Origin: an uncultured Muribaculaceae bacterium
GTDB lineage: Bacteria; Bacillota_I; Bacilli_A; RF39; UBA660
DNA: 64,000 nt
Assembly: GCA_964650315.1 (NCBI GenBank)
Contig: CAZYQE010000005.1
Span: 23,076 to 87,075, forward strand
Direction of reading: 5' to 3'
The notes beneath the pieces are model-generated. The model was given only the letters and a program-made list of their open reading frames with translations. It ran no database searches and had not been told where the DNA came from. Both the position numbers and the translations under genes were made by a program. This document shows positions 4,690 through 29,601 of this stretch, one piece after another. The stretch's first letter is position 1, and every line of letters begins with the position of its first letter.

Positions 4690-5979
4690 CTATTTTACTA
4701 TATATGGTTTTGATTTAGTTCCTTTTCCACCTTTAACCATAGTATCACTAGCTAACATAATAACTGGTCTTATATCAGAAACTGTCATTGCCTCTGTAAT
4801 AGAAATTTCTCCAGTATTACTAATATAGAAAATATCAGTATTATTATTCTTTGAAGCAGTTCCTAATAACCATTCATAATCAGTAGCTAAGAAATTATAA
4901 TTTTGACACGAAGGATCAGTATCTTTTTTACAATTTGGATCTAAACTTACAAACATATAATCAGAAACAGTAAGTAATCCTATTTTTTGTTGTGATAGAA
5001 TTTCACTACATTCTGCAGAATTATCTTTAACGGCACTACCTACTGCTCTTTTTCCTATACACACATCAAAAGGAACCATTTTAGCTTTATCGCTAGCTGT
5101 TAAAAATTTCGTATCTTTGTCTTTGTCTTTATATGCTTTTTTTAGAAATTGACGCATTCTACTAGCTTTATAGTCATTGATACCTGCATTATATCCTTCC
5201 GCAGTATTATATCTATCATCCCATGTTGAAGAATTATCATAAACACTATTTAAAACTAGCATAACTTCATTATTACCACTAATTTTTACTGCACGCCATT
5301 TTTTCTTTCCCATCTTAACGTAGTTTCTAAGTTTTTCTCCACGATATACATAACCATTATTAACACTATATAAACCTTCACCACTAGTTACAGTTTTTTC
5401 TTCTAATTTTTTATATAGTTCAGTAGTATTATAATCAGAACCACAATTTAAATATGGAGTATATACATATTTACCATCTATTTTCTTTACACTAACTTTA
5501 CCAGAACAACTAGCATCCTCACCAAGATATTTTGTAAAATCATCCATATACTCATTATTAATTAAAGTTGTTGAAGTAATTTCAACTACTTGTTTACTAT
5601 TAGGTAATTTTTTCTTATTATCAGCAAAATATGATTTGGCAGCATCTTTTAATACATCTTCTACATCTTCATATGAATAAGAAGGTCCACTAAATATAGA
5701 TGCAATACCCATAATAAGACCTATTACTAGAAAAGCTCCTAAAATTCCACCCATAATAAATATTAAGCGTCTCTTCAATTCTCTATTTCCACCAAAACCT
5801 CTAGGAGATGAACTAGGATTATCATCCACTATTGGATCAATATCTATTTCTAAATCTTCATTTTCATTTTCTACAGTAGCAGCACTATCTTGTGAAACCT
5901 CTTTTTCTTCTACTTCTGTTTCCATAGTAGAATCTTCTTCTTTTTTATCTTCTTTTATAGTTTCAACTTTATCATCCAT
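4690..5979 (-). CDS. membrane-anchored surface protein (acidic N-terminus, one TM, extracellular module shared with the 601-aa protein)
   Basis: 429 aa. It has the acidic head MDDKVETIKEDKKEEDS..., TM helix LIFIMGGILGAFLVIGLIMGIASIF and 7 Cys. The ectodomain contains KKWRAVKISGNNEVMLVLNS ... IRPVIMLASDTMVKGGKGTKSKPYIVK. The same start and end motifs occur twice in ORF 26236-28041. Confidence 0.6.
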   Translation of the reverse strand: MDDKVETIKEDKKEEDSTMETEVEEKEVSQDSAATVENENEDLEIDIDPIVDDNPSSSPRGFGGNRELKRRLIFIMGGILGAFLVIGLIMGIASIFSGPSYSYEDVEDVLKDAAKSYFADNKKKLPNSKQVVEITSTTLINNEYMDDFTKYLGEDASCSGKVSVKKIDGKYVYTPYLNCGSDYNTTELYKKLEEKTVTSGEGLYSVNNGYVYRGEKLRNYVKMGKKKWRAVKISGNNEVMLVLNSVYDNSSTWDDRYNTAEGYNAGINDYKASRMRQFLKKAYKDKDKDTKFLTASDKAKMVPFDVCIGKRAVGSAVKDNSAECSEILSQQKIGLLTVSDYMFVSLDPNCKKDTDPSCQNYNFLATDYEWLLGTASKNNNTDIFYISNTGEISITEAMTVSDIRPVIMLASDTMVKGGKGTKSKPYIVK

Positions 5980-5993
5980 AATAATACCTCCTA

Positions 5994-8201
5994 TTAATTA
6001 TCAAAAAAATCATCAAAGAATTCATCGTCTTCCTCGTCTTCAATAACTAAGTTATTTTTAGCAGGAGGAACAGTTTGTAGCTTATTTTCTTTCTTATCAT
6101 TAAGTGTTTCAACAACTTTAGGTTTTTCATCAAGAGTCTCCACAGGAGTTTCATCTTTCTTCTCTGATACAGGAATTTCACTAGTACCACTAGAAATCTT
6201 ACCTTTAGCTTTCTTTTCTTCCTCTTCTTCTTTCTCTAATTCTGCAATTTTAGCATCAATTTTCTTTACTAAATCATCTACATTAAATCCAGAAGGTTCT
6301 TCCTCTTTTTCTTCTCTTTGAGTTACAGGACTAGTAGGTTTAGAATTTGCTAGAGGATCTTCAATGTTTGGAGCAAAAGGACTAGCAGCAGGTCTTTGCA
6401 TTCCAGATAATCCTGGAGGCGGACCAGCCATTCCTCTATGCATAGGCATTTCTTCCATTGTATTATCTGAACTAGCATTCATCATATCTAATAACTTTTT
6501 CTTTTTACGTTCTTTAACAAATTCTTTTATATCAAAAGTATGAACTTCTTCTTTTTGTCTATGAGGATATTTAGCAATAGGATATCTTTCACCCCAGTTT
6601 AATTTATAAAATGGAGTAAATTTAGTTTTAAATGGTTGTTTTCTAAGTCTTAGGATAACAACCTCAAATTGTTTCATTCTTTGTAGATCAGAAACTGTTA
6701 CCAATGGTGTAGATGCTGTTTTATCATCTTTCTTAGACTTCTCCTCACCACACATCTTAGAAATTTCTTCTAAAGCCTTCAACTCAGTAGTAATCAAATA
6801 AATAATATTACCACAGTTACCTCTAATAGTCTCTGCTTCTTCTTTACCATAAACTTGATCTAACTGAGCAAAGTTTTGAATAATCATTGTAAATCTAATT
6901 TTTCTAGAACGAGCTGCTGTAATCATAGTAGTAACATCTTTTAATGGTGGCATATTTGCAAACTCATCAAGTATGAAGTTAGTTCTAACTGGAAGTCCAC
7001 CACCATGTTTTTGTGCAACTCTAATTAATGTTTCATATATTTGCTTCAATAAGATTGTAACTAATGAGTGATATGTTTTCTTTTCATCTTGAATAACTAT
7101 GAAAACAGCTGTTGGTCTTTCACCAATAGACTCTAAATTTATATCACTATGAGATAACATTTCACTCAAATTCTCACGTGATGCAAATAATTTAACTTTT
7201 TGTTTAAATACTGATAAGATACTACCTTTAGTATCTGTAGGAGCCATAATTGTACTAGAAGCATTAATTGCAGCTGCACTAGCTGGATCCTTTTCTGCAA
7301 AATATTCTTTAATATATGTAGAACCACCAAATTTTTCTTCACCAACTGTAGTAGCTAGTGAAATACTATTGATGTTAATCTCATCTTCTTTAGCATCTTC
7401 AAATAAACCTAAAGCAACCCCAGAAAAATAATCTGCAGAAGTCTTTTCCCAGAATGGGTCAGCATTCTTATTTGAATCATCATATAATATATTTAAAGCT
7501 AAGTCATCTAATAACTCTATTGCTTTATCTTGATTACCTGATTTATACATTTGATAAGGTAAAGACATAGGATTCCAAGCATTACCATTTTGTGGATCAC
7601 GGAAATTAAGTAATAATATTTGATATCCTCTTTTACGTAGCATATTACTTGTTTTCTCATAAATTTCACCTTTAGGGTCAGTAATAATCATTGATTCTTT
7701 ACTTTTTGCTAAACTATAAACTAAAGGTAATACAACAGCTTGAGTTTTACCAGAACCAGTAGCACCAATAACTAATGAGTGATATTCACTATTATCTACC
7801 CACATTTCTTTTTCATTTAAAATTAAGGAAACTCCAGATGATTTAGAATTTTTTTGTCTAATCTCAACTCTATCTAATTCTTCTTTTATTTCACGGTCTT
7901 TTGCCCATCTAGAATAACCTTTATCCTTTTTATCTGTAGTAAGACCAAATCCTTTATCCATATCAAAAAAATAAGAACTAACACTAGCAAATAATCCTAC
8001 TAATACTAATACATACAATACAAGTGTAGCAACAATAAATCTAGGCCCAAAGGCAGGTAATGGATTTAATCCATACAAATAACCTTCAGTAGCAAAACTA
8101 TTGACATTAAGTACACCTATAGCAACAACATAAAGTAAAAATACAGCAAATATTCCAAATATAGTAAGATCTTCTGGATCTGCTCTAAATTTTAGTTTCA
8201 T
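5994..8201 (-). CDS. type IV secretion coupling protein (VirD4/TraG family ATPase)
   Basis: 735 aa with two N-terminal TM helices, Walker A VIGATGSGKTQ and Walker B-like NFILDEFANMP. Conserved TraG/VirD4 stretches include PFWEKTSADYF and RSRKIRFTMIIQNFAQL. A ~190-aa acidic tail ends in DDEFFDDFFDN. Confidence 0.9.
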   Translation of the reverse strand: MKLKFRADPEDLTIFGIFAVFLLYVVAIGVLNVNSFATEGYLYGLNPLPAFGPRFIVATLVLYVLVLVGLFASVSSYFFDMDKGFGLTTDKKDKGYSRWAKDREIKEELDRVEIRQKNSKSSGVSLILNEKEMWVDNSEYHSLVIGATGSGKTQAVVLPLVYSLAKSKESMIITDPKGEIYEKTSNMLRKRGYQILLLNFRDPQNGNAWNPMSLPYQMYKSGNQDKAIELLDDLALNILYDDSNKNADPFWEKTSADYFSGVALGLFEDAKEDEININSISLATTVGEEKFGGSTYIKEYFAEKDPASAAAINASSTIMAPTDTKGSILSVFKQKVKLFASRENLSEMLSHSDINLESIGERPTAVFIVIQDEKKTYHSLVTILLKQIYETLIRVAQKHGGGLPVRTNFILDEFANMPPLKDVTTMITAARSRKIRFTMIIQNFAQLDQVYGKEEAETIRGNCGNIIYLITTELKALEEISKMCGEEKSKKDDKTASTPLVTVSDLQRMKQFEVVILRLRKQPFKTKFTPFYKLNWGERYPIAKYPHRQKEEVHTFDIKEFVKERKKKKLLDMMNASSDNTMEEMPMHRGMAGPPPGLSGMQRPAASPFAPNIEDPLANSKPTSPVTQREEKEEEPSGFNVDDLVKKIDAKIAELEKEEEEEKKAKGKISSGTSEIPVSEKKDETPVETLDEKPKVVETLNDKKENKLQTVPPAKNNLVIEDEEDDEFFDDFFDN

Positions 8202-8223
8202 ATCACTACACCCTCTCTAGTTT

Positions 8224-8252
8224 ATTTTATCACGATTTTATATCTCTATCAA
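8224..8252 (-). promoter_or_regulatory. candidate sigma-A-type promoter upstream of the VirD4-like gene
   Basis: Minus strand: TTGATA (8252-8247), 17-nt spacer, TGaTAAAAT (-10 at 8229-8224). Such hexamers occur often by chance in AT-rich DNA. Confidence 0.3.
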
Positions 8253-8272
8253 CTCACAAGTCCAAATTAGAC

Positions 8273-8782
8273 TTACCATTCCCCGCCTTCATCAGGAGGT
8301 GGTAACCCTTTATCTGATGCATCTATTTCATCTTGTTCTTTTTCCTCTTTTTTATATTTTTTAGGATTCATAATCTGTAAATATGTTTTGTTTGTAACTT
8401 TTGATTTAATATCATAACTAATATTATCACCCATCCACTTACAACTTAAAACATCTTCATTATATTCACATTCAATTAGTGTTCTAAATTCGTTATCTAA
8501 ATAAAAGTATATATATATTTCACCAACAGTGTCTACTTCTTTAAATGTAATAGTACGATAATAATTATATTTTCTACTATTTAAATAATCAATAATGTTT
8601 GAATATAGTTTTTCTTTTCTTTTTTTATCCATTTTTAGAACTTTACTATTTTCAAAAGAAACATCATTAATACTAACCTTTTTAAAATATGGATCATTAT
8701 TCATGTTAGATATAATAAATGCAGCAACAATAACACCTAAAATAAACAATACTGCTAATAGACTTTTTAATTTATTATTCAT
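8273..8782 (-). CDS. membrane-anchored T4SS accessory protein (VirB8/TcpC-like topology only)
   Basis: 169 aa with an N-terminal TM (LLAVLFILGVIVAAFII) and a ~130-aa extracytoplasmic domain. Its start overlaps the hydrolase stop (TAATG). The assignment rests on position and topology, not on motifs. Confidence 0.4.
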   Translation of the reverse strand: MNNKLKSLLAVLFILGVIVAAFIISNMNNDPYFKKVSINDVSFENSKVLKMDKKRKEKLYSNIIDYLNSRKYNYYRTITFKEVDTVGEIYIYFYLDNEFRTLIECEYNEDVLSCKWMGDNISYDIKSKVTNKTYLQIMNPKKYKKEEKEQDEIDASDKGLPPPDEGGEW

Positions 8783-18046: not shown

Positions 18047-18060
18047 TTAAAACACTCCTT

Positions 18061-18282
18061 TTACATATTTACTTCATAAACATGATCTTCTGAGATAACA
18101 AAACCAATACACTTTCCGCTTGCATCTCTCTTAGTACAATTAATATCATCCCATTGAGTATTTATAGCAGTTTGGATACTTGGCCACATTATCCAAAAGA
18201 AAGTTATTACTGCTGCTATTGCTATTAAAGTAATAACTGTCAAATTTAATTCACCTGTTGCTGCTTTCATCAATAAACACAT
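18061..18282 (-). CDS. Flp-like small pilin candidate
   Basis: 69-73 aa (alternative start at 18270). It has a short leader ...MKAATG, then the hydrophobic ELNLTVITLIAIAAVITFFWIMW, and a C-terminal Cys-X8-Cys. It lies next to the TadB/TadC genes behind its own promoter. Confidence 0.5.
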   Translation of the reverse strand: MCLLMKAATGELNLTVITLIAIAAVITFFWIMWPSIQTAINTQWDDINCTKRDASGKCIGFVISEDHVYEVNM

Positions 18283-18325
18283 CCTTTCAAAATTAACCTA
18301 TATAGCCTACTCTATATACATTACT

Positions 18326-18354
18326 ATTATACCAATAATAGTTTTTTTTAACAA
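18326..18354 (-). promoter_or_regulatory. candidate strong promoter in front of the pilin gene
   Basis: Minus strand: TTGTTA (18354-18349), 17-nt spacer, extended -10 TGgTATAAT (-10 at 18331-18326). It sits in the 99-nt gap between the TadC-like and Flp-like genes. Confidence 0.45.
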
Positions 18355-18381
18355 TATTTTTTTGAATAATACTTTCTATCT

Positions 18382-19164: not shown

Positions 19165-20066
19165 TATTCAGCACCTACATTCTCATTATAATATTTTTCT
19201 CCCTTAAGCAAGAAATATGAATTAATAATTAATACACCATGTAATAAAACATTTATATACCATCTATTAAGTAAGATTAAATAAGTCTCTCTTCCTAATA
19301 AATATTGAACTAACATAACCATTAAATAAAGCATTATACCAAATTGTAAAAATTGCTTATGGAATGTTGCTCTTTCAATTCTATCTCTATAAACACTCTC
19401 AACTAACATATCAATATCAAGTTGCATATTTTCTAAAGACTCAGCTGAATCTTTAGCACCTTCTTTTGTAATTTGTAAGAATAGTTGATGCATGTTCTTA
19501 ACAATATAATATGGATATTTCTCACTCATATATACAAGTGATTCATCTATACTACCATTTTTATATGCTAAATCTATCATATGTTCAACATCACTTTTTA
19601 CTGGATCTTCAAGTATTCCAGAATTTTTAACACCCTCTAAAGATTTTACAAAAGATTGAGTAGTTGCAAACTCCATAATAGTGTTTGATGTATATACCTG
19701 TATTTGTTCAAATAAGAATTCACTATATACTCTTTTACATCTTAAATAAGATAAATATGGAATAAATGATACTACAATAGCCATATATACAATACAAATT
19801 ATTAAATTATAAAAATATAAATATGTAACAACTCCTGTAAATCCAGCCATAACAATAGCTTGAATTAAATATTGTCTAGGAGTATATTCTTGTCCCAATT
19901 GCTTAGTTTTTTCTCTAACCAATTTAAATGAATATGGCGCAAATTTATTATAAGCACCTTGTACTTGAGTTGTAATAAATTTTCCAACATTTTCACCTTG
20001 ATAATTTCTATATAATACAAGGAAAGTAAATATTGCTATTAAAAATACCAATTCCAATACGTACAT
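19164..20066 (-). CDS. TadB-like pilus platform protein (T2SS-F domain family)
   Basis: 300 aa with the same architecture as its neighbour (...FVKSLEGVKNSGILEDPVKSDVEHMIDLAYKNGSIDESL...). It lies immediately downstream of the CpaF-like ATPase. Confidence 0.65.
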   Translation of the reverse strand: MYVLELVFLIAIFTFLVLYRNYQGENVGKFITTQVQGAYNKFAPYSFKLVREKTKQLGQEYTPRQYLIQAIVMAGFTGVVTYLYFYNLIICIVYMAIVVSFIPYLSYLRCKRVYSEFLFEQIQVYTSNTIMEFATTQSFVKSLEGVKNSGILEDPVKSDVEHMIDLAYKNGSIDESLVYMSEKYPYYIVKNMHQLFLQITKEGAKDSAESLENMQLDIDMLVESVYRDRIERATFHKQFLQFGIMLYLMVMLVQYLLGRETYLILLNRWYINVLLHGVLIINSYFLLKGEKYYNENVGAE

Positions 20067-20080
20067 ATGAATTCTCCTTT

Positions 20081-21367
20081 CTAAGCAGTTGCTTTAGTTA
20101 CAGGTTTTACTGCAGGTTTTGCAGGTGCAGCCTGTTTAGCAGGCTGTGCTGTAGCAGGTTTTGCTACTGGCGCTTTAGTTGGTGCAGTAGATACTGTAGG
20201 CTTTGCTGCAGCAGGTTGCACCACTTTAGGTTTAGCACCACCACTACTTTGTGGTTGTTGAACTTGTTTGTTTTGAACACTAGGTGCACTAACATCTCCA
20301 AATGGCTTATCATTAATATGTGAAGTGACTTCACTAATATTAATATTTTGATTTTCTAAATACTCAATTAAATGTGCACTTGGTTTGTTTAAAACAGGTT
20401 CACCATCAAATTGTTTTTGATAAATTATATGACTTTGTGGTTTATTATCTTCATCTACATAAAATTCAACAACTTCATCAACTTCACGATGGAAACAACC
20501 CTTTTCTTTACTATAATAAGCCTTTATATGAACTCCTAATTGGATATATCTATATATAGTAGTTAAAAATTGATTTACATCTAAATCTGTCTCCATTAAA
20601 CTGTAAAGACGATATGGTATAGCAGATGCTTTATCCGCATGAATTGTTGATAAAATATTATGACCTGATGATATAGAGTTACGTACAGCAGAAACAGCTT
20701 CTGCACTACGAACCTCTGATAATAAAATCCACTTTGGATTCTGTCTCATACAAGTAACTAAAACATCAGTATAACTAGCAACATTATTAGTCTTCATTGC
20801 AACAATATCTCTTTGTGGAAATATTTTATCTAAATGAAGTTCTAATGTATCTTCAATAGTTATAACTTTTTCATTTACTTTTGTATGACTAGCCAAGTAT
20901 TTAACAAACTCAGTTTTACCAGAACCAGTTTCACCACAAACCATGATATTACAATGTCCTTCAACACATTTTATTAAAATATCATGTATATCTTGAGTAA
21001 AATAATCATCTTTTATTAATTTTTCTTTCTCTAATCTTATTTTTGCTGGAGTCTTACGAATTACCATAGCTATTCCATTAGTTGCAATAGATTGATGTAC
21101 AAAGTTAAGACGCAATTCGCTAGATTCAGCATCTAAAAAGGGTTTAGCATTATTGAAAGTTGTCCCCATTACGTTAGAGCATTGAAAAGCAAGTTTTTCA
21201 ATAAAATCTGGGGTAACTCCCTGTATCTCAACCCTTAAAGATCCTTGAGTTAGAGAACGCACCCAAATTTGACCACCATTGTCAAAAGAGATATCTGTGA
21301 TATCATCATTATCCAACAATGCTCTTAAGGGTCCAAAATCTAACTTGTCAAATATATTTTCGTTCAT
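20081..21367 (-). CDS. cpaF: CpaF/TadA (VirB11-superfamily) secretion ATPase with a basic Pro/Ala/Lys-rich C-terminal tail
   Basis: 428 aa with Walker A VCGETGSGKTEF, ITIEDTLEL, Asp-box/Walker B RQNPKWILLSEVR and His box GHNILSTIHA. The last 69 aa are low complexity (AKPKVVQPAAAKPTVSTAPTKAPVAKPATAQPAKQAAPAKPAVKPVTKATA). Confidence 0.9.
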   Translation of the reverse strand: MNENIFDKLDFGPLRALLDNDDITDISFDNGGQIWVRSLTQGSLRVEIQGVTPDFIEKLAFQCSNVMGTTFNNAKPFLDAESSELRLNFVHQSIATNGIAMVIRKTPAKIRLEKEKLIKDDYFTQDIHDILIKCVEGHCNIMVCGETGSGKTEFVKYLASHTKVNEKVITIEDTLELHLDKIFPQRDIVAMKTNNVASYTDVLVTCMRQNPKWILLSEVRSAEAVSAVRNSISSGHNILSTIHADKASAIPYRLYSLMETDLDVNQFLTTIYRYIQLGVHIKAYYSKEKGCFHREVDEVVEFYVDEDNKPQSHIIYQKQFDGEPVLNKPSAHLIEYLENQNINISEVTSHINDKPFGDVSAPSVQNKQVQQPQSSGGAKPKVVQPAAAKPTVSTAPTKAPVAKPATAQPAKQAAPAKPAVKPVTKATA

Positions 21368-21402
21368 CTAACCCATCTCCCTTTTTATTCTTTAATTCTT
21401 TT

Positions 21403-22215
21403 TTATTCTCCAGTCCATACTGTCCACTCATTAATCTTATCTTTTAACTCTGAACTACTAATTTCTAATTGTCCAGGTTCATCTTTAAGACTTTCATTAG
21501 TTGGAACAGGTATTAATGAAGAATCATATGTTCTCAAATAACTAGCTTTCTTAAGTAAGATATAATAATCTTCAGGTAAAGCAAACACAATCATAGCTGG
21601 TGTTTTAGAATCATCTACATTAGAAAATACCGGTTGTCCACTACTATCTTTAACAGCTAGAACCTTAACATTTTCTATAAGTTTACCATACATGATTTTA
21701 TCTGCATCTTTATTACCTTTAGCTATTTGTTCATCTGATAATTTATTTACAGCTTTTAAATAAATATCAATATAATTACCTGGATAAATTGAGTTACCAT
21801 ACGTAGTCTCCGTATCAACAGGCATATTATATAAAACATAACCTTTAGGATAATCTAATATGATATTAGCAGGTAATTGTTCTTTTTCAACAACATTCCT
21901 AGCATAAAATAGACTTCCTTCAGGAATTACTGTATCTGCATTAGAGTATTTATCAATAACATCAGCTTGATTTTTAATAACATCACCTTTTAACATTGAT
22001 GGTGGTATATCCATAGTACCAACCATACTTTCAGTAATTTGTGTACCAGGCGATATAGTTTCCTTAGCATAAGGTACGCTAATTGGATTAATAGCTGCTT
22101 TCACACGAGCATTATATGAAATATATAAAACTACAACAGCCAATACAACTCCTAAAACAGTTACTGTATTTTTATTACCTAATAACTTTTTAATACCAGA
22201 ATTTGCATTTCCCAT
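21403..22215 (-). CDS. cpaB: CpaB/RcpC-like Flp pilus assembly protein (SAF-domain type)
   Basis: 270 aa with an N-terminal TM (VTVLGVVLAVVVLYISY). This is followed by ISVPYAKETISPGTQITESMVG...VIPEGSLFYARNVV, matching the CpaB SAF-domain pattern. Confidence 0.7.
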   Translation of the reverse strand: MGNANSGIKKLLGNKNTVTVLGVVLAVVVLYISYNARVKAAINPISVPYAKETISPGTQITESMVGTMDIPPSMLKGDVIKNQADVIDKYSNADTVIPEGSLFYARNVVEKEQLPANIILDYPKGYVLYNMPVDTETTYGNSIYPGNYIDIYLKAVNKLSDEQIAKGNKDADKIMYGKLIENVKVLAVKDSSGQPVFSNVDDSKTPAMIVFALPEDYYILLKKASYLRTYDSSLIPVPTNESLKDEPGQLEISSSELKDKINEWTVWTGE

Positions 22216-22230
22216 TTTATTCCCCTCTTT

Positions 22231-22671
22231 CTAATTCATTTCTCTTTTTATTTTACCAGCACAATATTGATCATAATGATAATTTTCTTCTAATATTGCG
22301 TCTACAGTAGTATGTATAGGTGTAGACTCACCTTTAACCTTTAGTACAGTATTAGAATCAATTTTAACACTAGCTTTAGGTGGAATTTCACTTATATCGT
22401 AAAATCCAACTGTATATTCACGAGTATTATCTACTGTATCAGCAAATCTACAAAGAAAATTTTCTACAAATTTTTCTCTATCAATTCTAAGCATACATGT
22501 TCTTCTATAGTAAGCAATATCTACTGCATCACTCATAGATGCTTCTGTTGTTTCCTTCAACAGGTAATAATCTAACTCACTACCTGTTGAATAATTAGAA
22601 ATAACATTTATCATTAATAACGCTACTAAACTTAAAAGTATAATACCAACTGTTAACATTGCCTTATTCAT
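22231..22671 (-). CDS. N-terminally anchored small protein (pseudopilin-like topology)
   Basis: 146 aa with the N-terminal hydrophobic segment MLTVGIILLSLVALLMINVI and 3 Cys. It sits between the Cys-rich giant and CpaB. No family was recognised. Confidence 0.35.
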   Translation of the reverse strand: MNKAMLTVGIILLSLVALLMINVISNYSTGSELDYYLLKETTEASMSDAVDIAYYRRTCMLRIDREKFVENFLCRFADTVDNTREYTVGFYDISEIPPKASVKIDSNTVLKVKGESTPIHTTVDAILEENYHYDQYCAGKIKREMN

Positions 22672-22681
22672 AATTTACCTC

Positions 22682-25396
22682 CTATTTAGCATACCTACTA
22701 ATGCTATCTTTAGTACTACTGTTTATATAGTATTTATCAACATATTTTCCGATATCTCTAAGTAATCCTGATCTATATCTATAAATACCATATTTATCAG
22801 CTGTTGTCTCAACTTTTCCCATAAATGTTGCATAATTTCCATTCTTACCACTAGCTGCTGTTGAGAAATTACGTATAGACATTAGATTTGCCTTACTTAA
22901 AGTAAATTCATAATCTAGATTTGATTTATCATAAATAACCTTTTTACTTTGAATTGATTGAATTACAGATTTAATATTAATATCCGCTGTATTAGCAGCT
23001 TCAGTCCAGTTAAATCCTACATTAGTACCTGAATTATTCTCATTAGGGAATAAATTTGCCGTATCAACAATTCTAAACTCAAAGTCGTTTGCACCATCAG
23101 TAGTTGTTGTTTTATTACAATCACCAATACATGTACTTGTACATTTACTAGTCGTTTTATCACATTTATCTACTGTTGTTGTTTTACAACATCCAGTTGA
23201 ATTAGGAACACATTCCTCATTTCTTATAGCATAGAAACAAGATATATCAAAATTCCATTTAAAGTGTCCAAAATCAATAGTTTTAGCATAAATATTATAA
23301 TTTATATCTCCACCAGTATATTGACTTGAATTTCCATAGCATGTATTACCTAACTGATTCCATTGCCACCACTTATCATTAGTAGTTTGAGCATTTAATG
23401 GTAAACAGAATTTATTTGTTTCTTCTTTCCAACCATCATCAGTTTTGCTTGTATAAGAAATATCTCCTGTTTTATTATTAATCCATGTTCCTGGGAATGA
23501 CCACTCAGCTTGATACCAAACATCATTTGGATTTGATGTATAACATGATCTATCACCTTGTTTTGGCAATAATAATGTTGTATCTTTATCAGTGTTTGTT
23601 GCTGTACAAGTTGAAGAACTAGATTCTTCTGGATTCTTAGAACATAAATAATCTTCTTTTTTAGTTGTCATAGGGAAATCTTTTTTCTTCATTTCTCCTT
23701 TAATTGAATAATAAGTACCTATAGTATAAGTAGATGTTGAAGTAGTACAATTTGCTTTAGCTGTACATAAATCAACTTTTTTCTTCCATGCTGCAACCGC
23801 TTTTTTGTAATCACGTTCTGCATGTGTATCATTTAAGTATTCGCTCTTACCATCACATTGTGTCCATTTACATGGCTCTGGACAAGAACTACCTCCACGA
23901 TACTGTGCTCTTATAAATCCTTCTTTTACATAATGATTTACAGTTTTAGATGTCCATTTTGGTTTATAATTAGCTAGTGTATACCATCTTCCTTGAGTAG
24001 TACTAACATTCCATCTTACTTTACTATCATCACCAAGATAATAACATCCTGCTGAATTACCACATAATTCTTTATTTTTATTTACTTTTTTAGTTTTATT
24101 ATTCTTTTTCTTACTATTCTTCTTAGTATTTTTTACTTTAGTTACTTCAGCAGATGTATCTCTCATTGAAAGTGATTCATTAGAAGATTCACCATATACT
24201 TCTTCGTAACATTTATTACTACATTTCTTACTATATTTTCCTCCATCACATTTTTCTACACAATTATCAAATGCTACATTAGGACCAGCTTGATGTCTAT
24301 ATTTAATTGTTCCATTACAAACCGGTGATGGAACACAATAAGCATAGTTTTCTCTTCTAGGAATACTATTTTTATTAGGTTTAACATTACATTTTACATA
24401 ACTAGTAACTTTAACTTGATATTCAAAACAAAGTCCTGCTTTTGAAGCAACCGGTGCTCCATATTCAACTTTTACTCTTTCAATACACTCTTGTTCACAT
24501 ACATTTAAGTTCTTTTCAGTTGACTTACTAGTATATTTTTTATTAGCACCATAATCATGTGTATAAGTAATAGTTGCCCCATCTATTGGTTGTGTTTCAC
24601 TAGTTTCAAAATATTTTTTATTTGCATAAATATAATTATTGTTACTATCTCTTGTTGTTTTAAGTTTAGAATTAGCATCACATATTAATTCTCCAACTTT
24701 TTTAACATCTTTCACATCAAATGGAGTTGGATTATGTGTTCCTAATTCTTCCCATTCAGCATAATAAGTATAATTATAATTATTTGCTTTCTTATCTGCA
24801 TACTCATACATGTCATTAGTCTTATCCTTTGGCATACCCTTGAAAGCATCACCTTGACTAGTAATCTCTTCAATTATCTCTAGAGTACCCTTAGCATCAT
24901 AATACTTATCACAACTTAAAATCTTATCTGTAGCTTTATTATTTTTACCTATACAAACTCTATATTTACCTGATGTTTTAACAACCCTTAAACCAATTCT
25001 AACATTACCATTAGAGTTTGCTTTAATATTTAAATCTTTAGAATGACCATTCTTAATTATATCTCCAATATATTTACCTGATGTTTTACCATTGATAGAA
25101 GAAATTTTAAGTTCATCACCTTTACATCCATCTGCCTTACAAGCAACTTTAACCGTAAATACACCAGATTTTTTCTTAGATATATTAACATTGTAATAAG
25201 AATAAATATCATATTCTTCTTCCTTACAATAGTCTTTTACATCTTTATTATATTTTTTAGATCCTACTGTTTTATTATCAGAATAATTTTTAGTCTTATT
25301 TCCGATTTTACAACTCTTAGCTTCTACATTAACATTTATAAATAGAAAACTAATTAATAAAACAACCCCAAATAATATATTTCTATACTTTTTCAT
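22682..25396 (-). CDS. secreted cysteine-rich giant protein (candidate fiber-tip adhesin)
   Basis: 904 aa with the signal peptide MKKYRNILFGVVLLISFLFINVNVEA. I counted ~37 Cys, including the cluster GCCKTTTVDKCDKTTSKCTSTCIGDCNK, and there is a Lys/Asn linker KNTKKNSKKKNNKTKKVNKNKE. There is no C-terminal sorting signal. Its start overlaps the sortase gene by 14 nt. Confidence 0.6.
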   Translation of the reverse strand: MKKYRNILFGVVLLISFLFINVNVEAKSCKIGNKTKNYSDNKTVGSKKYNKDVKDYCKEEEYDIYSYYNVNISKKKSGVFTVKVACKADGCKGDELKISSINGKTSGKYIGDIIKNGHSKDLNIKANSNGNVRIGLRVVKTSGKYRVCIGKNNKATDKILSCDKYYDAKGTLEIIEEITSQGDAFKGMPKDKTNDMYEYADKKANNYNYTYYAEWEELGTHNPTPFDVKDVKKVGELICDANSKLKTTRDSNNNYIYANKKYFETSETQPIDGATITYTHDYGANKKYTSKSTEKNLNVCEQECIERVKVEYGAPVASKAGLCFEYQVKVTSYVKCNVKPNKNSIPRRENYAYCVPSPVCNGTIKYRHQAGPNVAFDNCVEKCDGGKYSKKCSNKCYEEVYGESSNESLSMRDTSAEVTKVKNTKKNSKKKNNKTKKVNKNKELCGNSAGCYYLGDDSKVRWNVSTTQGRWYTLANYKPKWTSKTVNHYVKEGFIRAQYRGGSSCPEPCKWTQCDGKSEYLNDTHAERDYKKAVAAWKKKVDLCTAKANCTTSTSTYTIGTYYSIKGEMKKKDFPMTTKKEDYLCSKNPEESSSSTCTATNTDKDTTLLLPKQGDRSCYTSNPNDVWYQAEWSFPGTWINNKTGDISYTSKTDDGWKEETNKFCLPLNAQTTNDKWWQWNQLGNTCYGNSSQYTGGDINYNIYAKTIDFGHFKWNFDISCFYAIRNEECVPNSTGCCKTTTVDKCDKTTSKCTSTCIGDCNKTTTTDGANDFEFRIVDTANLFPNENNSGTNVGFNWTEAANTADINIKSVIQSIQSKKVIYDKSNLDYEFTLSKANLMSIRNFSTAASGKNGNYATFMGKVETTADKYGIYRYRSGLLRDIGKYVDKYYINSSTKDSISRYAK

Positions 25397-26204
25397 TTTC
25401 TACATCACCTTTCAACTTTCTTTCAATTTTTTTATATTTATTTGATTTATTAACACTATAATTAGTATATCTTTCTCCTTTTCTAACTAATCTAGCACTA
25501 ACAACAAATTCACGCTCATCATCTGTACCAAACATTCTAGTACATGTAATTAAAGAAATAATTTTATCATTTTCGTTAACATCTACACCAAAATCATAAA
25601 TACTTTTTTTCTTTAATTTTTCTATATACTTTTGAAGTTGTTTTTTTGAATAATTACCATTATTATTAACATCTAAGTTATATTGATAATCAAAACCTAC
25701 TGCAAAAATTTTATAAACATAATCTTTACCGCCTATAGTATACTGTATATATTTATTATCTTTAATAAAATTATAATATACAAATGACATCAAATCATCA
25801 AATCTTGAAAATTCTTTCAACCCTACTTCTGGTTTAGCAGATAGATTTAATAAATTATGTCCCATTATACTAACTTTATTAAACAACTTTTCTTCTTTAT
25901 TTAAATTCCACAAATAATTGTTTTTGCTAGCCATAGAATTCTCATCATCATCTAAATATGTAATTATAGGTGTATCTATATTAGTTCCCTGAACTCTAAG
26001 CCATCCAATAGTTTTAAAATTATTACTATTATCTTTCTTTTTCTCTTCACTAATATTTTTAACTCTATTACTTTTCTCATAAATAACTTCTTTAGAAGAT
26101 TCAAGTATAAAAGTTACACCTATAACAGAAAGAATTAAAAGTATAATTATTAAAATAATAACCATAACTTTTAATTTCTTTGTTTTTTTATTCTTAATGA
26201 GCAT
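25383..26204 (-). CDS. srtB: class B-like sortase
   Basis: 273 aa with an N-terminal TM anchor and GWLRVQGTNIDTPIITY. The catalytic residues appear in the order IMGHN (His), ISLITCTR (TLxTC Cys) and VVSARLV (Arg), as in SrtB. Confidence 0.85.
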   Translation of the reverse strand: MLIKNKKTKKLKVMVIILIIILLILSVIGVTFILESSKEVIYEKSNRVKNISEEKKKDNSNNFKTIGWLRVQGTNIDTPIITYLDDDENSMASKNNYLWNLNKEEKLFNKVSIMGHNLLNLSAKPEVGLKEFSRFDDLMSFVYYNFIKDNKYIQYTIGGKDYVYKIFAVGFDYQYNLDVNNNGNYSKKQLQKYIEKLKKKSIYDFGVDVNENDKIISLITCTRMFGTDDEREFVVSARLVRKGERYTNYSVNKSNKYKKIERKLKGDVENEKV

Positions 26205-26235
26205 ACAAACATCACCCCAATTTGTTTTATAAAAA

Positions 26236-28041
26236 TTATTTAGTTATTGTATATGGATTATCTAATGTTCCTTTACCACTAACAATTTTTATATTTTTAT
26301 TTAAGTGTCCAACCAATCTAATTCCAAATTGATCATAATCACCGATATCTTCATTTAGTGGAACACCAACATCTGCCATAGCAGCTTTTATATTTTTGTT
26401 CTTAGATGAATTTCTAAACCAATATGATTCCATCTCTTCTTCTAAAAATTCACCTGCACTAAACATTTCATACATATCTGGTGCTGCAAAAGTAACATTA
26501 TATCTCTTTGTATCCACTTCTTTTTTATAAGCTATTTTATTTTTATAAATAGGAACTTCTATTTCGTGTTTTACAAAATATTTGTTTTTAACATATCTAC
26601 TAGTTTTATTATTGATAAAGTATCCTATATTTCCTTTTTGGTTTGGATTATATAATTTTGATTCACTGTTTGTATCATAGAAAGTTGTAACTGACTCTCC
26701 ACCACTCTTTAAATTGTTATTAGCAATCACCTTAACAGTACTATCATCTGCAACATCAATGATTCTCCATAGATAACCAGAATATTTAACATATTCTCCA
26801 GTATATCTAGTATTTAAGTAATCACCACTTCTAGCTTTTTTAATATCTCCTATTGAATATGGTTTTTCAGAAGTACCATCTCCACCTTTAATTAATGTAG
26901 AACCCTTAATTGTTAAAACAGGTCTAATACCATAATTATATTTATTAGGGAATTTAGCGACTGTTTTACCATATTCTTCTCCTAAGAAATTATCCCTTGT
27001 AGTATATGATTCTTTATTATCATATTTATTAGCTGTCCATGATACTGAAGATGATTTCAAAAAGCTTTCTTTATTTTCTAAACTTTTATTAATTTCATCT
27101 GTAGAAACTACATATGCTTTTTTCTTTCCTGTATATGAATCACACTTTACAGTATTTGTTTTACTATCAGTTAATTTCATATTACAGTAATTATTTTCAA
27201 CTATATATTCTTTAGATTTCTCACTTAAATGTTCATAGTAATAGTCTAACCATTTATCTATACCATTGTAATTAATATTACTTATATCTTGATCAGCTAT
27301 TACCTTAACATTCTTACCAGAATTACCAATTATTCTAAATAGCATCCCAGAAAAATAAATGTAATTAGCAGGATCTTCTCCTTGGTAGTATCCTAAATCA
27401 TCAGTATCATTCTTAACTACATTTTTTAATTTAGATACAACTTTTACTGTTCTAGTCTTAACAGTTTTATTTCCAAAACTATCAACAGCAGTATAAGTAA
27501 CATCATAATTACCAACTTTTTTAGTATTTACTTGTTTAGAATTAATAGCGACATTATCTTTACTCATAGTTCCATCTGTATTATCTTTAACAGACTTAAC
27601 ACCAAATTCAATATAGTCATCACCTTTATCTACAGAAATAACATCATCACCTTTTAATGTTATTTCTGGTCCTTTATGATCAACTAATGAATTCATAACA
27701 CCACATTTTAAATAAACATAATATTTATCTTCACCATCTTTTCGTTTAACTTTAACCCAACTATCTGTAACTGAACATGATTTATTAGTTATAGGCACTT
27801 CTAAATCATCTTTCAAAAATGATTTTGTATAAAGTGTTTGTAAAGAAACAGTACCTACTCTATTTCCAGTAGGACGTAAATTTTGATTTACTTCAAAATA
27901 TCTTTTAGCTGCCTTTAACATCTTACTTTCATTTGATTTAAATTTAATTATTGGTCCTAATATTAAAAACCAAACAAATAATAATACAACTAATAAAACA
28001 CCAACTCTTTTAACTAACTTAATTATTCTTTCTTTTTCCAT
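26236..28041 (-). CDS. membrane-anchored surface protein: Ig-like (DUF5011-type) domain + two copies of the module also found in ORF 4690-5979
   Basis: 601 aa with an N-terminal TM. The Ig-like stretch is PEITLKGDDVISVDKGDDYIEFGVKSVKDNTDG...VGNYDVTYTAVDSFGNKTVKTRTVKVV. Module copy 1 runs MLFRIIGNSGKNVKVIADQ ... IRPVLTIKGSTLIKGGDGTSEKPYSIG. Module copy 2 runs YLWRIIDVADDSTVKVIANN ... IRLVGHLNKNIKIVSGKGTLDNPYTITK. Confidence 0.6.
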   Translation of the reverse strand: MEKERIIKLVKRVGVLLVVLLFVWFLILGPIIKFKSNESKMLKAAKRYFEVNQNLRPTGNRVGTVSLQTLYTKSFLKDDLEVPITNKSCSVTDSWVKVKRKDGEDKYYVYLKCGVMNSLVDHKGPEITLKGDDVISVDKGDDYIEFGVKSVKDNTDGTMSKDNVAINSKQVNTKKVGNYDVTYTAVDSFGNKTVKTRTVKVVSKLKNVVKNDTDDLGYYQGEDPANYIYFSGMLFRIIGNSGKNVKVIADQDISNINYNGIDKWLDYYYEHLSEKSKEYIVENNYCNMKLTDSKTNTVKCDSYTGKKKAYVVSTDEINKSLENKESFLKSSSVSWTANKYDNKESYTTRDNFLGEEYGKTVAKFPNKYNYGIRPVLTIKGSTLIKGGDGTSEKPYSIGDIKKARSGDYLNTRYTGEYVKYSGYLWRIIDVADDSTVKVIANNNLKSGGESVTTFYDTNSESKLYNPNQKGNIGYFINNKTSRYVKNKYFVKHEIEVPIYKNKIAYKKEVDTKRYNVTFAAPDMYEMFSAGEFLEEEMESYWFRNSSKNKNIKAAMADVGVPLNEDIGDYDQFGIRLVGHLNKNIKIVSGKGTLDNPYTITK

Positions 28042-28050
28042 AATATTCTC

Positions 28051-29601
28051 CTATTTAATTTTTAATGTATATTGTCTATTACGAACCACATATACAAGAT
28101 TAACTTTTTCTGCATTTAGAACTTCAGACGGTACTTTAAAATAAATATACTGTCCCATATATTTTCTACCGACTGCATCCTTTACTTTCACACTTCTAGT
28201 CTTATTATTATCTATATAATATATTTTACCATATTTACTAGAAAAGTCAATGAAATCTTTACCCTCAAAGACATCAGATAAAAATTCAATTTCTACGATT
28301 TTTTCAGTTGAATTTACATTTATAGTACCAACTTCTGAAGCACAACTATCTTCATCATCACACTCTTCATAAGAATACTCAGCACTATCAACTATATCAA
28401 TAGATTCTACATTAAGATCTTTCTTCTTACTTCCCTCTTGAATATTTGTTTTTTTACCTATCTTTATATTATTTTTTTCTATTATTTTAGATACATCTTC
28501 TATATTAAGTTTAATCTTTCTTATAAAAGGTTCCCCATTAATATATTCCTGGTATCCCAAAACAAATCCATTCTTATCTAATTTTTTATCTACTTTAAAT
28601 ACTAATATTAAATCTACTTTTTCATCTTGTTTAATATCTTTAGAATTAGATGTTTCACCTAAATCATCAAAATCTGTACCATAAGTTCTAACAGTATATC
28701 CATAATTCTTTATACCATTCATAATATGATATCTACTTAAATCAAGCTTTCTCTTTAATGCATTATTTTTAATACTTAAATCAACTATTACAAAATTACT
28801 ACTATCAGAAATAATATCTCCTTTATAATCTTTATCAGTATAATAACTATTATTAACAATTACAGTATAACCATCAATATCAAAACTACTACCCTGTTTA
28901 AAAGATCTATGTACTATAAAAACATTATAGATAGTATACCCAATAACTATAATCAAAAATGCACTAATGGTAGTTCTAATTAAATATTTATGTTCTTCAT
29001 ATACATAACCAGCATTTCTTTTAAATTTTTTATACCCACTAATAAATGAATGTTTATCAACATTAATATTAATTTCAAATTCATCTCTATCATCAGAATC
29101 TAATTCTAGATATTCTTGATCCATCTTAAAATTAAAATTATTAATATCTATACCAAAAATTCTAATTAATAATATTATAAATACTGGATATTGTCCTAAA
29201 GAAGAAATAAGCAATAAATCTCTAACAGCTCTAACACCTGTAGTTCCATCACCCAGATAAGTCGCAAAAAAATTAGTAGTAATAATAAATACAATAAACA
29301 TAAACACATATACAACTACTGGAATTAAATATAATTTCCATGGCTTGTTTTTACGTTTCAATAAAACCACTAAAGTAATAAATAAAGCTATAACTATTAA
29401 TAAAGCTAATATTACAAAAATATTTATATGTCTACTAATTGGTTCATTATACATATCATATGTTCCAAAATTCAAAAATTCTGTTACAAATAATCTAGTT
29501 TGAGAATTCTTATAGAATATATAAGCGCACAAAAATAACATAAAGATATGTATCTTTCTAAAGTTCTTCACTAAAAATGCATATGGTTTTCTAAAAATCA
29601 T
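28051..29601 (-). CDS. polytopic membrane protein with extracellular beta-rich (DUF4352-like) domain; first gene of the array
   Basis: I prefer the start at 29601 (SD GAAGGTG 6 nt upstream) over the track start at 29658. It has ~5 N-terminal TM helices plus one more TM. The ectodomain contains FVIVDLSIKNN...VDLILVFKV, reminiscent of DUF4352-type sandwich domains. Confidence 0.5.
   Translation of the reverse strand: MIFRKPYAFLVKNFRKIHIFMLFLCAYIFYKNSQTRLFVTEFLNFGTYDMYNEPISRHINIFVILALLIVIALFITLVVLLKRKNKPWKLYLIPVVVYVFMFIVFIITTNFFATYLGDGTTGVRAVRDLLLISSLGQYPVFIILLIRIFGIDINNFNFKMDQEYLELDSDDRDEFEININVDKHSFISGYKKFKRNAGYVYEEHKYLIRTTISAFLIIVIGYTIYNVFIVHRSFKQGSSFDIDGYTVIVNNSYYTDKDYKGDIISDSSNFVIVDLSIKNNALKRKLDLSRYHIMNGIKNYGYTVRTYGTDFDDLGETSNSKDIKQDEKVDLILVFKVDKKLDKNGFVLGYQEYINGEPFIRKIKLNIEDVSKIIEKNNIKIGKKTNIQEGSKKKDLNVESIDIVDSAEYSYEECDDEDSCASEVGTINVNSTEKIVEIEFLSDVFEGKDFIDFSSKYGKIYYIDNNKTRSVKVKDAVGRKYMGQYIYFKVPSEVLNAEKVNLVYVVRNRQYTLKIK

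Follow-up and report, generated by a model that had tools for sequence, protein, structure and literature searches.

We describe a locus of ∼25 kb and 22 genes (4690–29601, minus strand) in a 64-kb stretch of DNA from an uncultured bacterium assigned to the GTDB order RF39 (GenBank assembly GCA_964650315.1, contig CAZYQE010000005.1; hereafter, the window). The locus combines the genes of a Tad-like fibre motor with the channel genes of a Gram-positive type IV secretion system (T4SS), a sortase and several surface proteins. These component families are already known; what is new is the domestication of the locus, which lacks a relaxase and is fixed in the RF39-type lineage. In the open-access literature, we found no description of it in RF39 or related Bacilli. 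We read the locus as a contact-dependent transfer apparatus that is kept by the host cell and does not move a mobile element, a reading to which we assign a probability of roughly 55%. Retention by the host for its own benefit is suggested by the loss of DNA-processing genes, the fixed chromosomal site, co-divergence with the chromosome and a conservation above housekeeping level. Judged from these patterns, the machine appears to be under strong purifying selection at a fixed chromosomal site, which argues that it serves the host cell and not a mobile element.

Gene content and organisation of the locus

The window contains 22 co-directional open reading frames (ORFs) on the minus strand between 4690 and 29658. 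The likely start codon of gene 1 is the ATG at 29601, which has AGGTG upstream and agrees with the end coordinate given in a preliminary description of the same DNA. As noted there, the gaps between genes are mostly shorter than 60 nt: they range from 9 to 111 nt and exceed 60 nt in three cases only, upstream of virD4, of the pilin gene and possibly of gene 14. The five overlaps listed in that description are also present, namely 1 nt each at 8782 and 19164, 4 nt at 12712–12715, 23 nt at 13235–13257 and 14 nt at 25383–25396, of which the 23-nt overlap follows from a 181-aa start of gene 17 that gene callers choose as well. Direct reading of the sequence further confirmed the two terminators that had been proposed to bracket the array. 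A consensus terminator scan of the window flagged neither of them, because their A+T-rich stems contain fewer than three G-C pairs. In order of transcription, the features of the locus are listed below (TM, transmembrane).

29602–29680, minus strand: greA terminator hairpin (TAATCT-GAAA-AGATTA) with T8 at 29680–29657, then the promoter and ribosome-binding site region of gene 1; read directly from the sequence
28051–29601, minus strand: gene 1, polytopic membrane protein (4 TM-like segments) whose extracellular domain weakly matches DUF4352
26236–28041, minus strand: gene 2, surface protein anchored at its N-terminus and carrying a bacterial Ig-like domain (PF16403, 8e-15), conserved in relatives
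25383–26204, minus strand: gene 3, membrane-anchored sortase, tentatively of class-B type (PF04203, 29.5 bits)
22682–25396, minus strand: gene 4, 904-aa secreted protein with 37 Cys; no Pfam/NCBIfam match
22231–22671, minus strand: gene 5, N-anchored DUF5411 protein (PF17424, 1.7e-46)
21403–22215, minus strand: gene 6, pilus alignment protein, CpaB/RcpC-like and of SAF type, with a TM segment at its N-terminus (RcpC, 2.3e-06)
20081–21367, minus strand: gene 7, secretion ATPase (TadA/CpaF-VirB11-FlaI group) ending in a Pro/Ala/Lys tail of low complexity (PF00437, 3.5e-26)
19164–20066, minus strand: gene 8, TadB/TadC-type (T2SSF-like) platform protein, by profile-profile comparison
18382–19164, minus strand: gene 9, second platform protein and paralogue of gene 8, by hhalign against the gene-8 family
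18061–18270, minus strand: gene 10, pilin candidate of Flp size (∼50–69 aa), by alignment of 31 relatives
17579–18046, minus strand: gene 11, N-anchored 155-aa protein (TM-like segment 1–32), minor-pilin candidate by position only
16570–17547, minus strand: gene 12, TadZ-like cytoplasmic protein, by predicted fold
16161–16511, minus strand: gene 13, VirB2-like T4SS pilin, a two-helix hairpin with a conserved Cys near both ends (PF18895 at family level)
15665–16072, minus strand: gene 14, second VirB2-like paralogue with a signal peptide, by alignment with the gene 13 family
13569–15647, minus strand: gene 15, polytopic VirB6-like channel protein, its C-terminus prolonged by a long extension (PF19597 TrbL_4, 7e-11)
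13235–13552, minus strand: gene 16, VirB3-like protein of the PrgI family (PF12666, 0.0012, weak; conserved position)
12712–13257, minus strand: gene 17, VirB4 N-terminal domain as an ORF of its own (PF26593, TraC-like)
10925–12715, minus strand: gene 18, VirB4 ATPase domain (AAA_10, P-loop_TraG and DUF87 domains)
8782–10899, minus strand: gene 19, membrane-anchored cell-wall hydrolase (CHAP and Phage_lysozyme2 domains, TM segment)
8273–8782, minus strand: gene 20, 169-aa N-anchored protein, whose position alone makes it a candidate for a VirB8-like component
5994–8201, minus strand: gene 21, VirD4 coupling protein of the CD1115 family with a long acidic C-terminal tail (PF02534, 4e-57)
4690–5979, minus strand: gene 22, N-anchored surface protein with a DUF6273-like domain (PF19789, 7e-05)
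4659–4689, minus strand: intrinsic terminator-like hairpin (GAATCTA-N7-TAGATTC) with T9 at the operon end; read directly from the sequence

Conservation and inheritance of the locus

A VirB4 alignment, run against a single genome for each GTDB species, gave at least 500 matching stretches, of which we examined the best 80. Their sources are named 'Bacilli bacterium', 'uncultured Tenericutes', Mycoplasma sp. CAG:877, Clostridium sp. CAG:417, Ca. Faecimonas and Ca. Onthousia, and one relative is a closed chromosome of 1.52 Mb. Ca. Faecimonas corresponds to the GTDB genus CAG-877 of the order RF39 and has a 1.4-Mb genome (PMC8035907), and RF39 is known for reduced genomes and auxotrophies (PMC12306168). 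A tblastn matrix revealed the whole locus to be syntenic in 80/80 species-level genomes. Wherever a locus was long enough to include the Tad-like as well as the T4SS half, the two were present together and in the same order. Downstream, most loci are followed by genes for a rhodanese, dedA, rmuC, a 214-aa ORF and trpS, while the upstream order U32-HD-greA is kept in relatives whose 904-aa protein (gene 4) is only ∼32–35% identical.

The locus also diverges together with its neighbourhood. Pairwise identity matrices of VirB4, VirD4, the TadB-like and the TadZ-like protein correlated with that of the flanking RmuC (Spearman 0.58–0.73), a value reached in 0 of 500 permutations. Mean pairwise identity was 87% for VirB4 versus 79.5% for RmuC, and the VirB4 ATPase domain (gene 18), with 81–97% identity across the 80 species genomes, is the most conserved protein of the locus. 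Synteny in all 80 genomes, conservation of both flanks and co-divergence with rmuC thus bear out the proposal, made in the preliminary description, that the array has been domesticated.

Metagenomic data extend this picture. Metagenomes yielded 4345 homologues of the TadZ-like protein (E≤0.001); among the 120 listed, Pfam domains are absent and the only source name is 'hypothetical protein'. Contigs with homologues at 53–66% identity have the same 20-gene order. In a metagenome sample anchored on RmuC, and hence unbiased with respect to the island, the island adjoins rmuC in every relative with an RmuC identity of at least 78%. Two of these RmuC-anchored loci hold divergent versions (VirB4 64–70%) at the same site, and none of the RmuC-anchored metagenome loci shows a clean 'empty site' between greA and the rhodanese gene. 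Some VirB4-anchored loci have other housekeeping flanks, which by eye are NAPRT/nicotinamidase-, SepF/DivIVA- or RluB-like, and around these no mobility-like ORFs were noticed by eye.

Absence of mobility genes

Scans with Pfam and NCBIfam profiles detected no relaxase, integrase/recombinase or transposase among the window ORFs scanned; some flank ORFs were read by eye only (e.g. 34494–35093, 36191–36900, 38412–41500 and 43689–45574). There is no tRNA gene in the 64-kb window, and it contains no flanking direct repeats of att type beyond chance. The plasmid relaxases MobP3 and MobL yielded no tblastn match in 2.68 Mb of related loci, and no relaxase or mobility gene was recognised by eye among the unassigned ORFs that flank the loci of four relatives. 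The preliminary description had found no DNA-processing or mobility genes in the array or in the flanks of the window, which agrees with the profile scans and, for the remaining flank ORFs, with inspection by eye. It had named a relaxase and integrase with att repeats as the finding that would speak for an ordinary mobile element; we looked for these in the window and found none, by profile or, for the remaining flank ORFs, by eye.

Relationship to Gram-positive conjugative plasmids

Homology and gene content indicate that the island, now chromosomal, descends from the mating apparatus of Gram-positive conjugative plasmids of the pXO2/pAW63/pLS20 type. The nearest plasmid relatives of VirB4 are found on B. 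thuringiensis plasmids (29% identity) and those of the gene 7 ATPase in the B. subtilis pLS20 family (36.7%), with further matches to an Enterococcus faecalis plasmid and a 181,769-bp B. anthracis plasmid. The backbone of pXO2/pAW63-like plasmids has been described (Van der Auwera 2005, PMC1196294), and we infer that pBMB67 of B. thuringiensis, the plasmid with the best VirB4 match, is a member of this family.

On pBMB67, the relevant genes lie in two blocks. The first encodes a MobP3 relaxase, a VirD4 of the CD1115 family, a 126-aa hairpin protein, TrbL, PrgI, a 227-aa protein and VirB4. The second, ∼6 kb away (locus 26119–36982), encodes an SLH protein, an 851-aa protein, a DUF5411 protein, a SAF/CpaB protein, a ParA-like ATPase, a T2SSE ATPase, polytopic proteins of 305 and 244 aa, an 89-aa protein and a DUF4320 protein. 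Eight window proteins are homologous to pBMB67 proteins, at identities of 21–32%, among them VirB4 (29%, 6e-87), VirD4 (31%, 2e-67), the VirB4 N-domain (3e-15), the gene 7 ATPase (27%, 6e-35), gene 8 (24%, 1e-07, to the 305-aa protein) and gene 9 (5e-05, to the 244-aa protein). The two systems have in common both modules: on the T4SS side a VirD4 of the CD1115 family, a small VirB2-like protein, VirB6, VirB3 and a split VirB4 (227 + 630 aa on pBMB67), and on the Tad-like side, besides the genes just named, one protein that is large and secreted and one that is small and pilin-like. Unlike the RF39 locus, pBMB67 is a plasmid and encodes a MobP3 relaxase, and it carries partition genes as well as transposable elements; its modules are separated by ∼6 kb and ordered otherwise, with the ParA-like gene preceding the ATPase gene. 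Moreover, no sortase, Ig-like or DUF6273 genes are present in the stretch of pBMB67 inspected.

A reduced form of the combination is carried by pLS20 (locus 9446–14265), where gene 37 encodes the ATPase, genes 38 and 39 polytopic proteins, and genes 40 and 41 small proteins with one TM segment. The plasmid also encodes a VirD4 (CD1115), a VirB6 (p028 family), a VirB3-like protein, a split VirB4 and MobL, with an adhesin upstream. Accordingly, a tadA/'VirB11' ATPase, two polytopic proteins, small TM proteins, VirD4, VirB6, a VirB3-like protein and a split VirB4 are shared with the window, whose ATPase (gene 7) is 36% identical to the product of pLS20 gene 37 and whose VirD4 and VirB4 are 27% and 23% identical to those of pLS20. 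The split of the pLS20 VirB4 (192 + 633 aa) is judged by size and position, the 192-aa ORF having no blastp match to gene 17. In contrast to the RF39 locus, pLS20 has been shown experimentally to be conjugative and has a MobL relaxase and an oriT (PMC8557374). It also has a thioester adhesin instead of the Cys-rich protein, and no CpaB or TadZ-like gene was recognised on it.

The preliminary description had seen a fusion of Tad and T4SS genes in the array, and had taken Gram-positive conjugative T4SSs normally to use surface adhesins and not pili. The fusion is not novel, and the premise of conjugation without a pilus-type module does not hold for this plasmid family, since pBMB67 carries the same combination and pLS20 a reduced form of it. 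The combination therefore did not arise in this genome and is an old property of this Gram-positive transfer family. The Tad-like module of Gram-positive conjugative plasmids has been annotated only as 'VirB11' plus hypothetical proteins; the same ATPase is named VirB11 in pAW63 and 'Flp pilus assembly ATPase' in Listeria pLM80. In a paper on the pLS20 family, genes 38–41 are given as unknown, and conjugative pili are stated to be absent from Gram-positive elements (PMC8557374). We found no recognition of a Tad-like module in pLS20/pXO2-type systems in the open-access literature. Contrary to the usual pilus-free statement, conjugation systems of this type may build a Tad-type fibre.

The T4SS module

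By its gene set, the T4SS module appears to be of the Gram-positive (MPF-FATA-like) kind, with a coupling protein of VirD4 type and not TcpA. Pfam and NCBIfam matches agree with the earlier assignments of VirB4, VirD4, the VirB6-like protein, the VirB3-like protein and the CHAP + lysozyme hydrolase, the VirB3-like match being weak. VirD4 scored 307 bits against NF045973 (CD1115 family; cutoff 250) and is 63–88% identical across loci. Its C-terminal ∼230 aa (5994–6700) form a low-complexity tail that ends in a highly acidic, aromatic motif (EDEEDDEFFDDFFDN), which may be a docking site for substrates or adaptors.

The N-terminal domain of VirB4 is encoded upstream of the ATPase domain by a separate ORF of up to 190 aa (gene 17), which matches NF045975 at 2e-15. 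We considered that the split might mark a pseudogene and rejected this, because all relatives among the 80 loci have the separate N-domain ORF, as does pBMB67 and, by size and position, pLS20. The split is thus ancestral. Gene 15 has 6 TM-like segments, and gene 16 is 26% identical to the PrgI-family protein of pBMB67.

Genes 13 and 14 encode paralogous two-helix hairpins according to their family alignment. Their VirB2-like label is supported at the family level, where PF18895 (T4SS_pilin) matches 27/42 members with a best value of 1.3e-07, the window copy (gene 13) reaching only 0.71. Relatives have between one and four VirB2-like paralogues per locus, and some copies carry extensions of 290–420 aa. 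In the window (15665–16511) and in relatives, these proteins have a conserved Cys before the first helix and another after the second. The Cys pair may form a disulfide clamp, analogous to the head-to-tail cyclisation of T-pilin.

The hydrolase (gene 19) would, from its domains, be the functional equivalent of VirB1. Its catalytic modules are swapped between species, with CHAP + lysozyme here and SpoIID or a C39-like peptidase in others. One relative encodes an extra 449-aa protein at the hydrolase position that looks NlpC/P60-like by eye, and deeper relatives have two to four added genes between the hydrolase gene and virD4. Gene 20, which follows the hydrolase gene in the window, has no Pfam or NCBIfam match; it is poorly conserved, with a tblastn match in 3/80 loci only.

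The Tad-like module

Of the earlier Tad labels, that of gene 7 (CpaF/TadA) was confirmed by a match to the T2SSE ATPase family PF00437. For gene 6 (CpaB), the RcpC match lies just under the gathering score (27.9 versus 28.8 bits). Since the NCBIfam scores of gene 7 are near-equal for VirB11 (1e-31), TadA-conjugal (3e-29) and FlaI (3e-27), we place it in the TadA/VirB11/FlaI group and no finer. Gene 6 also matches TIGR03177 (7e-09), at 35 bits versus a cutoff of 71, and is 32% identical (4e-24) to the SAF-domain protein of pBMB67.

For the platform proteins, the labels 'TadB/TadC' stood up to profile-profile comparison, at the level of remote homology, and not to direct family searches. Genes 8 and 9 had no match in Pfam, NCBIfam or PDB-sequence profiles, nor did 10 remote representatives and 52 family members included in the search. 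However, a diversified gene-8 profile built from an exhaustive search of representatives aligned with canonical Rhizobium/Ralstonia TadB/TadC at an hhalign probability of 91% (E 1.1e-06, 156 columns, T2SSF region). Gene 9 in turn aligned with the gene-8 family profile at 90.8% (E 1.2e-06). Comparisons of the window platform profiles with single pLS20 proteins by hhalign were weak.

The N-terminus of the pilin candidate (gene 10), MKAA(T/S)G/ELNLTVITLIAIAAV, is almost invariant among the 31 relatives, followed by a variable tail; it consists of a short basic leader, a Gly and then a hydrophobic helix. The 155-aa product of gene 11 showed no TadE/DUF4320-type or other family match in 32 relatives. 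For gene 12, no sequence-level match to a known function was found with Pfam, NCBIfam or PDB profiles, and the earlier TadZ-like label is supported at the level of predicted fold. The AlphaFold2 model (predicted local distance difference test (pLDDT) 82) has an N-terminal alpha/beta domain followed by a ParA/MinD-fold domain, whose P-loop is degenerate in the sequence, and its top Foldseek matches are the ParA-family structure 3ea0, FleN, HypB, BcsQ and MinD (E 4e-05 to 6e-03). The model thus has the predicted architecture of TadZ/CpaE.

Taken together, the module resembles canonical Tad/Flp systems such as Caulobacter Cpa and Aggregatibacter Tad in its gene order of a CpaB-like protein, the ATPase and the TadB- and TadC-type proteins, along with a pilin candidate of ∼50 aa and a ParA-like TadZ. 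It differs from them in that the locus has no secretin (the host being a monoderm), no prepilin peptidase, no G/XXXXEY motif and no TadE/F match, and in that its platform proteins are undetectable with the Pfam T2SSF model.

Surface proteins and sortase

The labels of the Ig-like surface protein, the sortase, the hydrolase and the final surface protein given in the preliminary description all agree with Pfam. Gene 1 is the first gene after greA in relatives, two of which have equivalents of 517–518 aa after GreA, and gene 22, at the other end of the locus, was found in 60/80 loci. Genes 2 and 22 share a C-terminal motif, GxGT..PY.I.K, which occurs as GGKGT.SKPY and GDGTSEKPY (4702–4736 and 26857–26891). 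The very end of gene 2 reads NPYTITK, an NPxTx pattern that resembles class-B sortase motifs and has no membrane anchor after it. The catalytic residues of the sortase (His116/Cys221/Arg238) are invariant in an alignment of six relatives; against TIGR03064, the protein scored 61.7 bits, the cutoff being 153.75. A sortase in a Gram-positive transfer locus has a precedent in pcpD of pCP13.

The Cys-rich protein encoded by gene 4 is lineage-specific and the fastest-evolving component of the locus. It has 129 homologues at E≤0.001; the 120 listed are mostly 27–38% identical, one being 98% identical, and nearly all are without a Pfam domain, with one carrying PF09479. Its AlphaFold2 model (mean pLDDT 64) is beta-rich and has no PDB fold match at E≤0.001. 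We regard the protein as a candidate adhesin or fibre tip. The neighbouring gene 5 has an equivalent at the same relative position on pBMB67, a 134-aa protein with a DUF5411 match of 8.9e-06.

Promoter-like sites, composition and flanking genes

Strong sigma-70-like sites on the minus strand lie in three of the longer gaps (111, 71 and 58 nt), at 18326–18354, 16538–16566 and 8224–8252, immediately before the genes for the pilin, the first VirB2-like protein and VirD4. Two of them have an extended −10 element, including the site before the pilin gene (18354–18326), which is inside the 111-nt gap. These sites hint at internal promoters, for which their position is the sole argument because overall counts of promoter-like sites are below the shuffled expectation.

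The G+C content is ∼24% for the whole window, 28–33% in the island core (5000–24000) and 22–26% in the flanks. Given that many species inherit the locus vertically, constraint on the amino acids of highly conserved proteins is a likelier cause of the higher island value than a recent acquisition would be.

The flanks had been described as housekeeping regions, and both profile scans and reading of the flank ORFs confirmed this. On the left are genes for TrpRS, RmuC, a DedA/VTT protein and a rhodanese. On the right, GreA, an HD phosphohydrolase, two U32 peptidases, MltG/YceG, a rhomboid protein, an AMP ligase, a family-2 glycosyltransferase (GT2), GH94, an RluD-type pseudouridine synthase, LspA, DnaE and BipA are encoded. 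The GH94 protein (45584–55961, minus strand) has 2543 aa with GH94 catalytic, GH94 supersandwich and glucoamylase-like domains, and adjoins an 879-aa family-2 glycosyltransferase membrane protein. This domain set recalls cyclic beta-1,2-glucan synthases, and a 7.6-kb gene is a large outlay for a ∼1.5-Mb genome.

Discussion

In the reading we favour, a contact-dependent apparatus retained by the host cell, the hydrolase would breach the wall and the Tad-like motor would extend, and perhaps retract, a short fibre. The Cys-rich protein together with the Ig-like and DUF6273 proteins, aided by the sortase, would give target-specific contact with another cell. VirD4 and VirB4 would then move a non-relaxase substrate through a channel of the VirB6-, VirB3- and VirB2-like proteins. 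The substrate could be one or several effector proteins sent outward, or macromolecules or nutrients exchanged with a partner cell. Fibre formation, the coupling of the two modules, the direction of transport and the cargo are what we infer in this scheme.

MOB-less T4SSs and the exaptation of conjugation systems are established concepts (Guglielmini et al.), and the RF39 locus shares the features of host-retained MOB-less T4SSs in being chromosomal, relaxase-less and lineage-wide and in having VirB2-like paralogues. We favour contact-dependent transfer because the best-documented analogue is the MOB-less T4SS of Saccharibacteria, which, with its VirB2-like pilins, is required for epibiotic growth (PMC12857230, PMC12102498). 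In Southlakia epibionticum, such growth cannot proceed without the T4SS and type IV pili, a requirement that is independent of ComEC (PMC12857230, PMC12102498). Like the Patescibacteria system, the RF39 locus belongs to a monoderm with a reduced genome and is chromosomal, lineage-wide and relaxase-less; it has a VirB1/3/4/6/D4-type gene set of MPF-FATA ancestry, multiple VirB2-like paralogues and, alongside, pilus-type genes, a pilus system being needed next to the T4SS in Patescibacteria. The two belong to different phyla, and the type IV pilus genes of Patescibacteria have not been described as part of the T4SS locus, whereas here the Tad-like motor is encoded in the same operon. Essentiality has been demonstrated in Saccharibacteria, and the comparison made here is with published descriptions of that system. 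A second parallel is Kil of Myxococcus, a Tad-like pilus that acts with a needleless type III secretion system (T3SS) at cell-cell contact (PMC8460266, PMC12075869). In both cases, a Tad-type fibre is proposed to cooperate with a secretion basal body at the contact site. Kil differs in its diderm host and in its partner, which is T3SS-like and not a T4SS; homology is confined to the Tad core, and prey killing has been shown for Kil.

Several observations weigh against the favoured reading. No substrate or effector is identifiable, and the VirD4 family is otherwise found in DNA-conjugation systems. A relaxase elsewhere in the genome is possible, our inspection having covered 64 kb here and ∼20 kb per relative. 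No prepilin peptidase (TadV/CpaA) is encoded in the window, as judged by profile for the 22 island proteins and the larger flank ORFs and by eye for the rest, and the pilin candidate has neither the Flp G/XXXXEY motif nor a Pfam match, so that fibre assembly can be proposed but not asserted. None of the island proteins carries a classical C-terminal sorting signal, and no sortase substrate is recognisable there. The pairwise identities of the gene 7 ATPase correlate poorly with those of RmuC (0.21), which is probably due to its variable tail. Finally, where RmuC identity is 77% or less, the island is usually not beside the rhodanese gene and rmuC, and greA is not adjacent either. Since it does not adjoin rmuC in these distant RmuC-anchored relatives, the island appears to have been lost or relocated in deeper branches, and we do not claim that it is universal in the order RF39.

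Of the alternatives, the one that survives best is a DNA-transfer device that uses a relaxase encoded elsewhere, either on integrative mobilisable elements or in chromosomal transfer of the Hfr or Mycoplasma kind, that is, 'sex' in a lineage with small genomes. The core proteins are indeed homologous to those of proven conjugative plasmids, VirD4 is above the CD1115 cutoff, the VirB4 N-domain resembles that of the Mycoplasma integrative and conjugative element (ICE; NF045975), and T4SS-dependent systems of chromosomal transfer are known (PMC12857230). However, a relaxase was found neither in the 64 kb here, by profile or by eye, nor around the loci of relatives, by tblastn with MobP3 and MobL or by eye, and a fixed position, co-divergence and a VirB4 conserved above housekeeping level would be unusual for a device serving parasitic elements. 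We therefore think this explanation unlikely, if worth keeping in mind.

It is more doubtful still that the locus imports DNA or other macromolecules in a ComB- or Ced-like manner, with the pilus capturing DNA and the T4SS importing it for transformation or nucleotide scavenging. In Micrococcus, transformation has been connected with Tad genes. T4SS-based import exists in H. pylori ComB and archaeal Ced, and RF39 is auxotrophic (PMC12306168). Against import, ComB-type systems work without VirD4, whereas VirD4 is conserved here (63–88% identity); comEC-dependent uptake in Saccharibacteria is separable from the essentiality of the T4SS (PMC12857230); and no DNA-binding or nuclease component was recognised in the locus.

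We likewise give little credence to the idea that two independent systems simply lie side by side, one a Tad pilus that serves adhesion in colonisation, with sortase and adhesins, and the other a separate T4SS. The promoter-like sites before the pilin gene, the VirB2-like gene and virD4 would fit such an arrangement, as would the weak correlation between the pairwise identities of VirB4 and the gene 7 ATPase (0.18) and the ∼6 kb between the two blocks of pBMB67. Yet the halves co-occur in the same order in every sufficiently long locus and are found together on two plasmid families, terminator-like hairpins are present only at the two ends, and the TadZ-like gene stands between the pilin and VirB2-like genes.

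An ordinary or decaying ICE with misplaced borders, for which the higher G+C content of the island (28–33% versus 22–26% in the flanks) could be cited, we reject as highly improbable, given that the window shows no integrase or other recombinase and no relaxase, by profile or, for the remaining flank ORFs, by eye, and no tRNA or att-like repeat, that all 22 ORFs are intact and the VirB4 split is ancestral, and that the same insertion context with conserved housekeeping flanks recurs across many species and co-diverges with the chromosome.

Beyond the favoured reading of a host-retained contact-dependent apparatus, we tentatively suggest, as a speculative extension, that RF39-type Bacilli may be partner-dependent, as epibionts or parasites of gut microbes or host cells. 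The Tad-like and T4SS organelle would then be their essential device for contact and exchange. It would have arisen by exaptation of a conjugation system of Bacillota, in an independent event convergent with that in Saccharibacteria, and the specificity for a partner would be set by the Cys-rich protein.

Members of the order RF39, so far uncultured, are widespread in the gut of humans and of animals, including livestock, and have small genomes and many auxotrophies. A 25-kb machine takes up ∼1.7% of a genome of ∼1.5 Mb, and its VirB4 is conserved more tightly than the housekeeping protein RmuC. This share of the genome and this conservation make the locus a strong candidate for an organelle of dependence on, or attack of, other cells. 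If our reading is correct, it would be the second independent case, after Patescibacteria, of a conjugation apparatus converted to a host-retained machine in a monoderm. The hitherto unrecognised Tad-like module of motor, platform and pilin on Gram-positive conjugative plasmids of the pXO2/pAW63-like and pLS20 types calls the pilus-free textbook view into question. For RF39 itself, the locus offers a tangible entry point into the biology of an order that is prevalent in the gut and uncultured.

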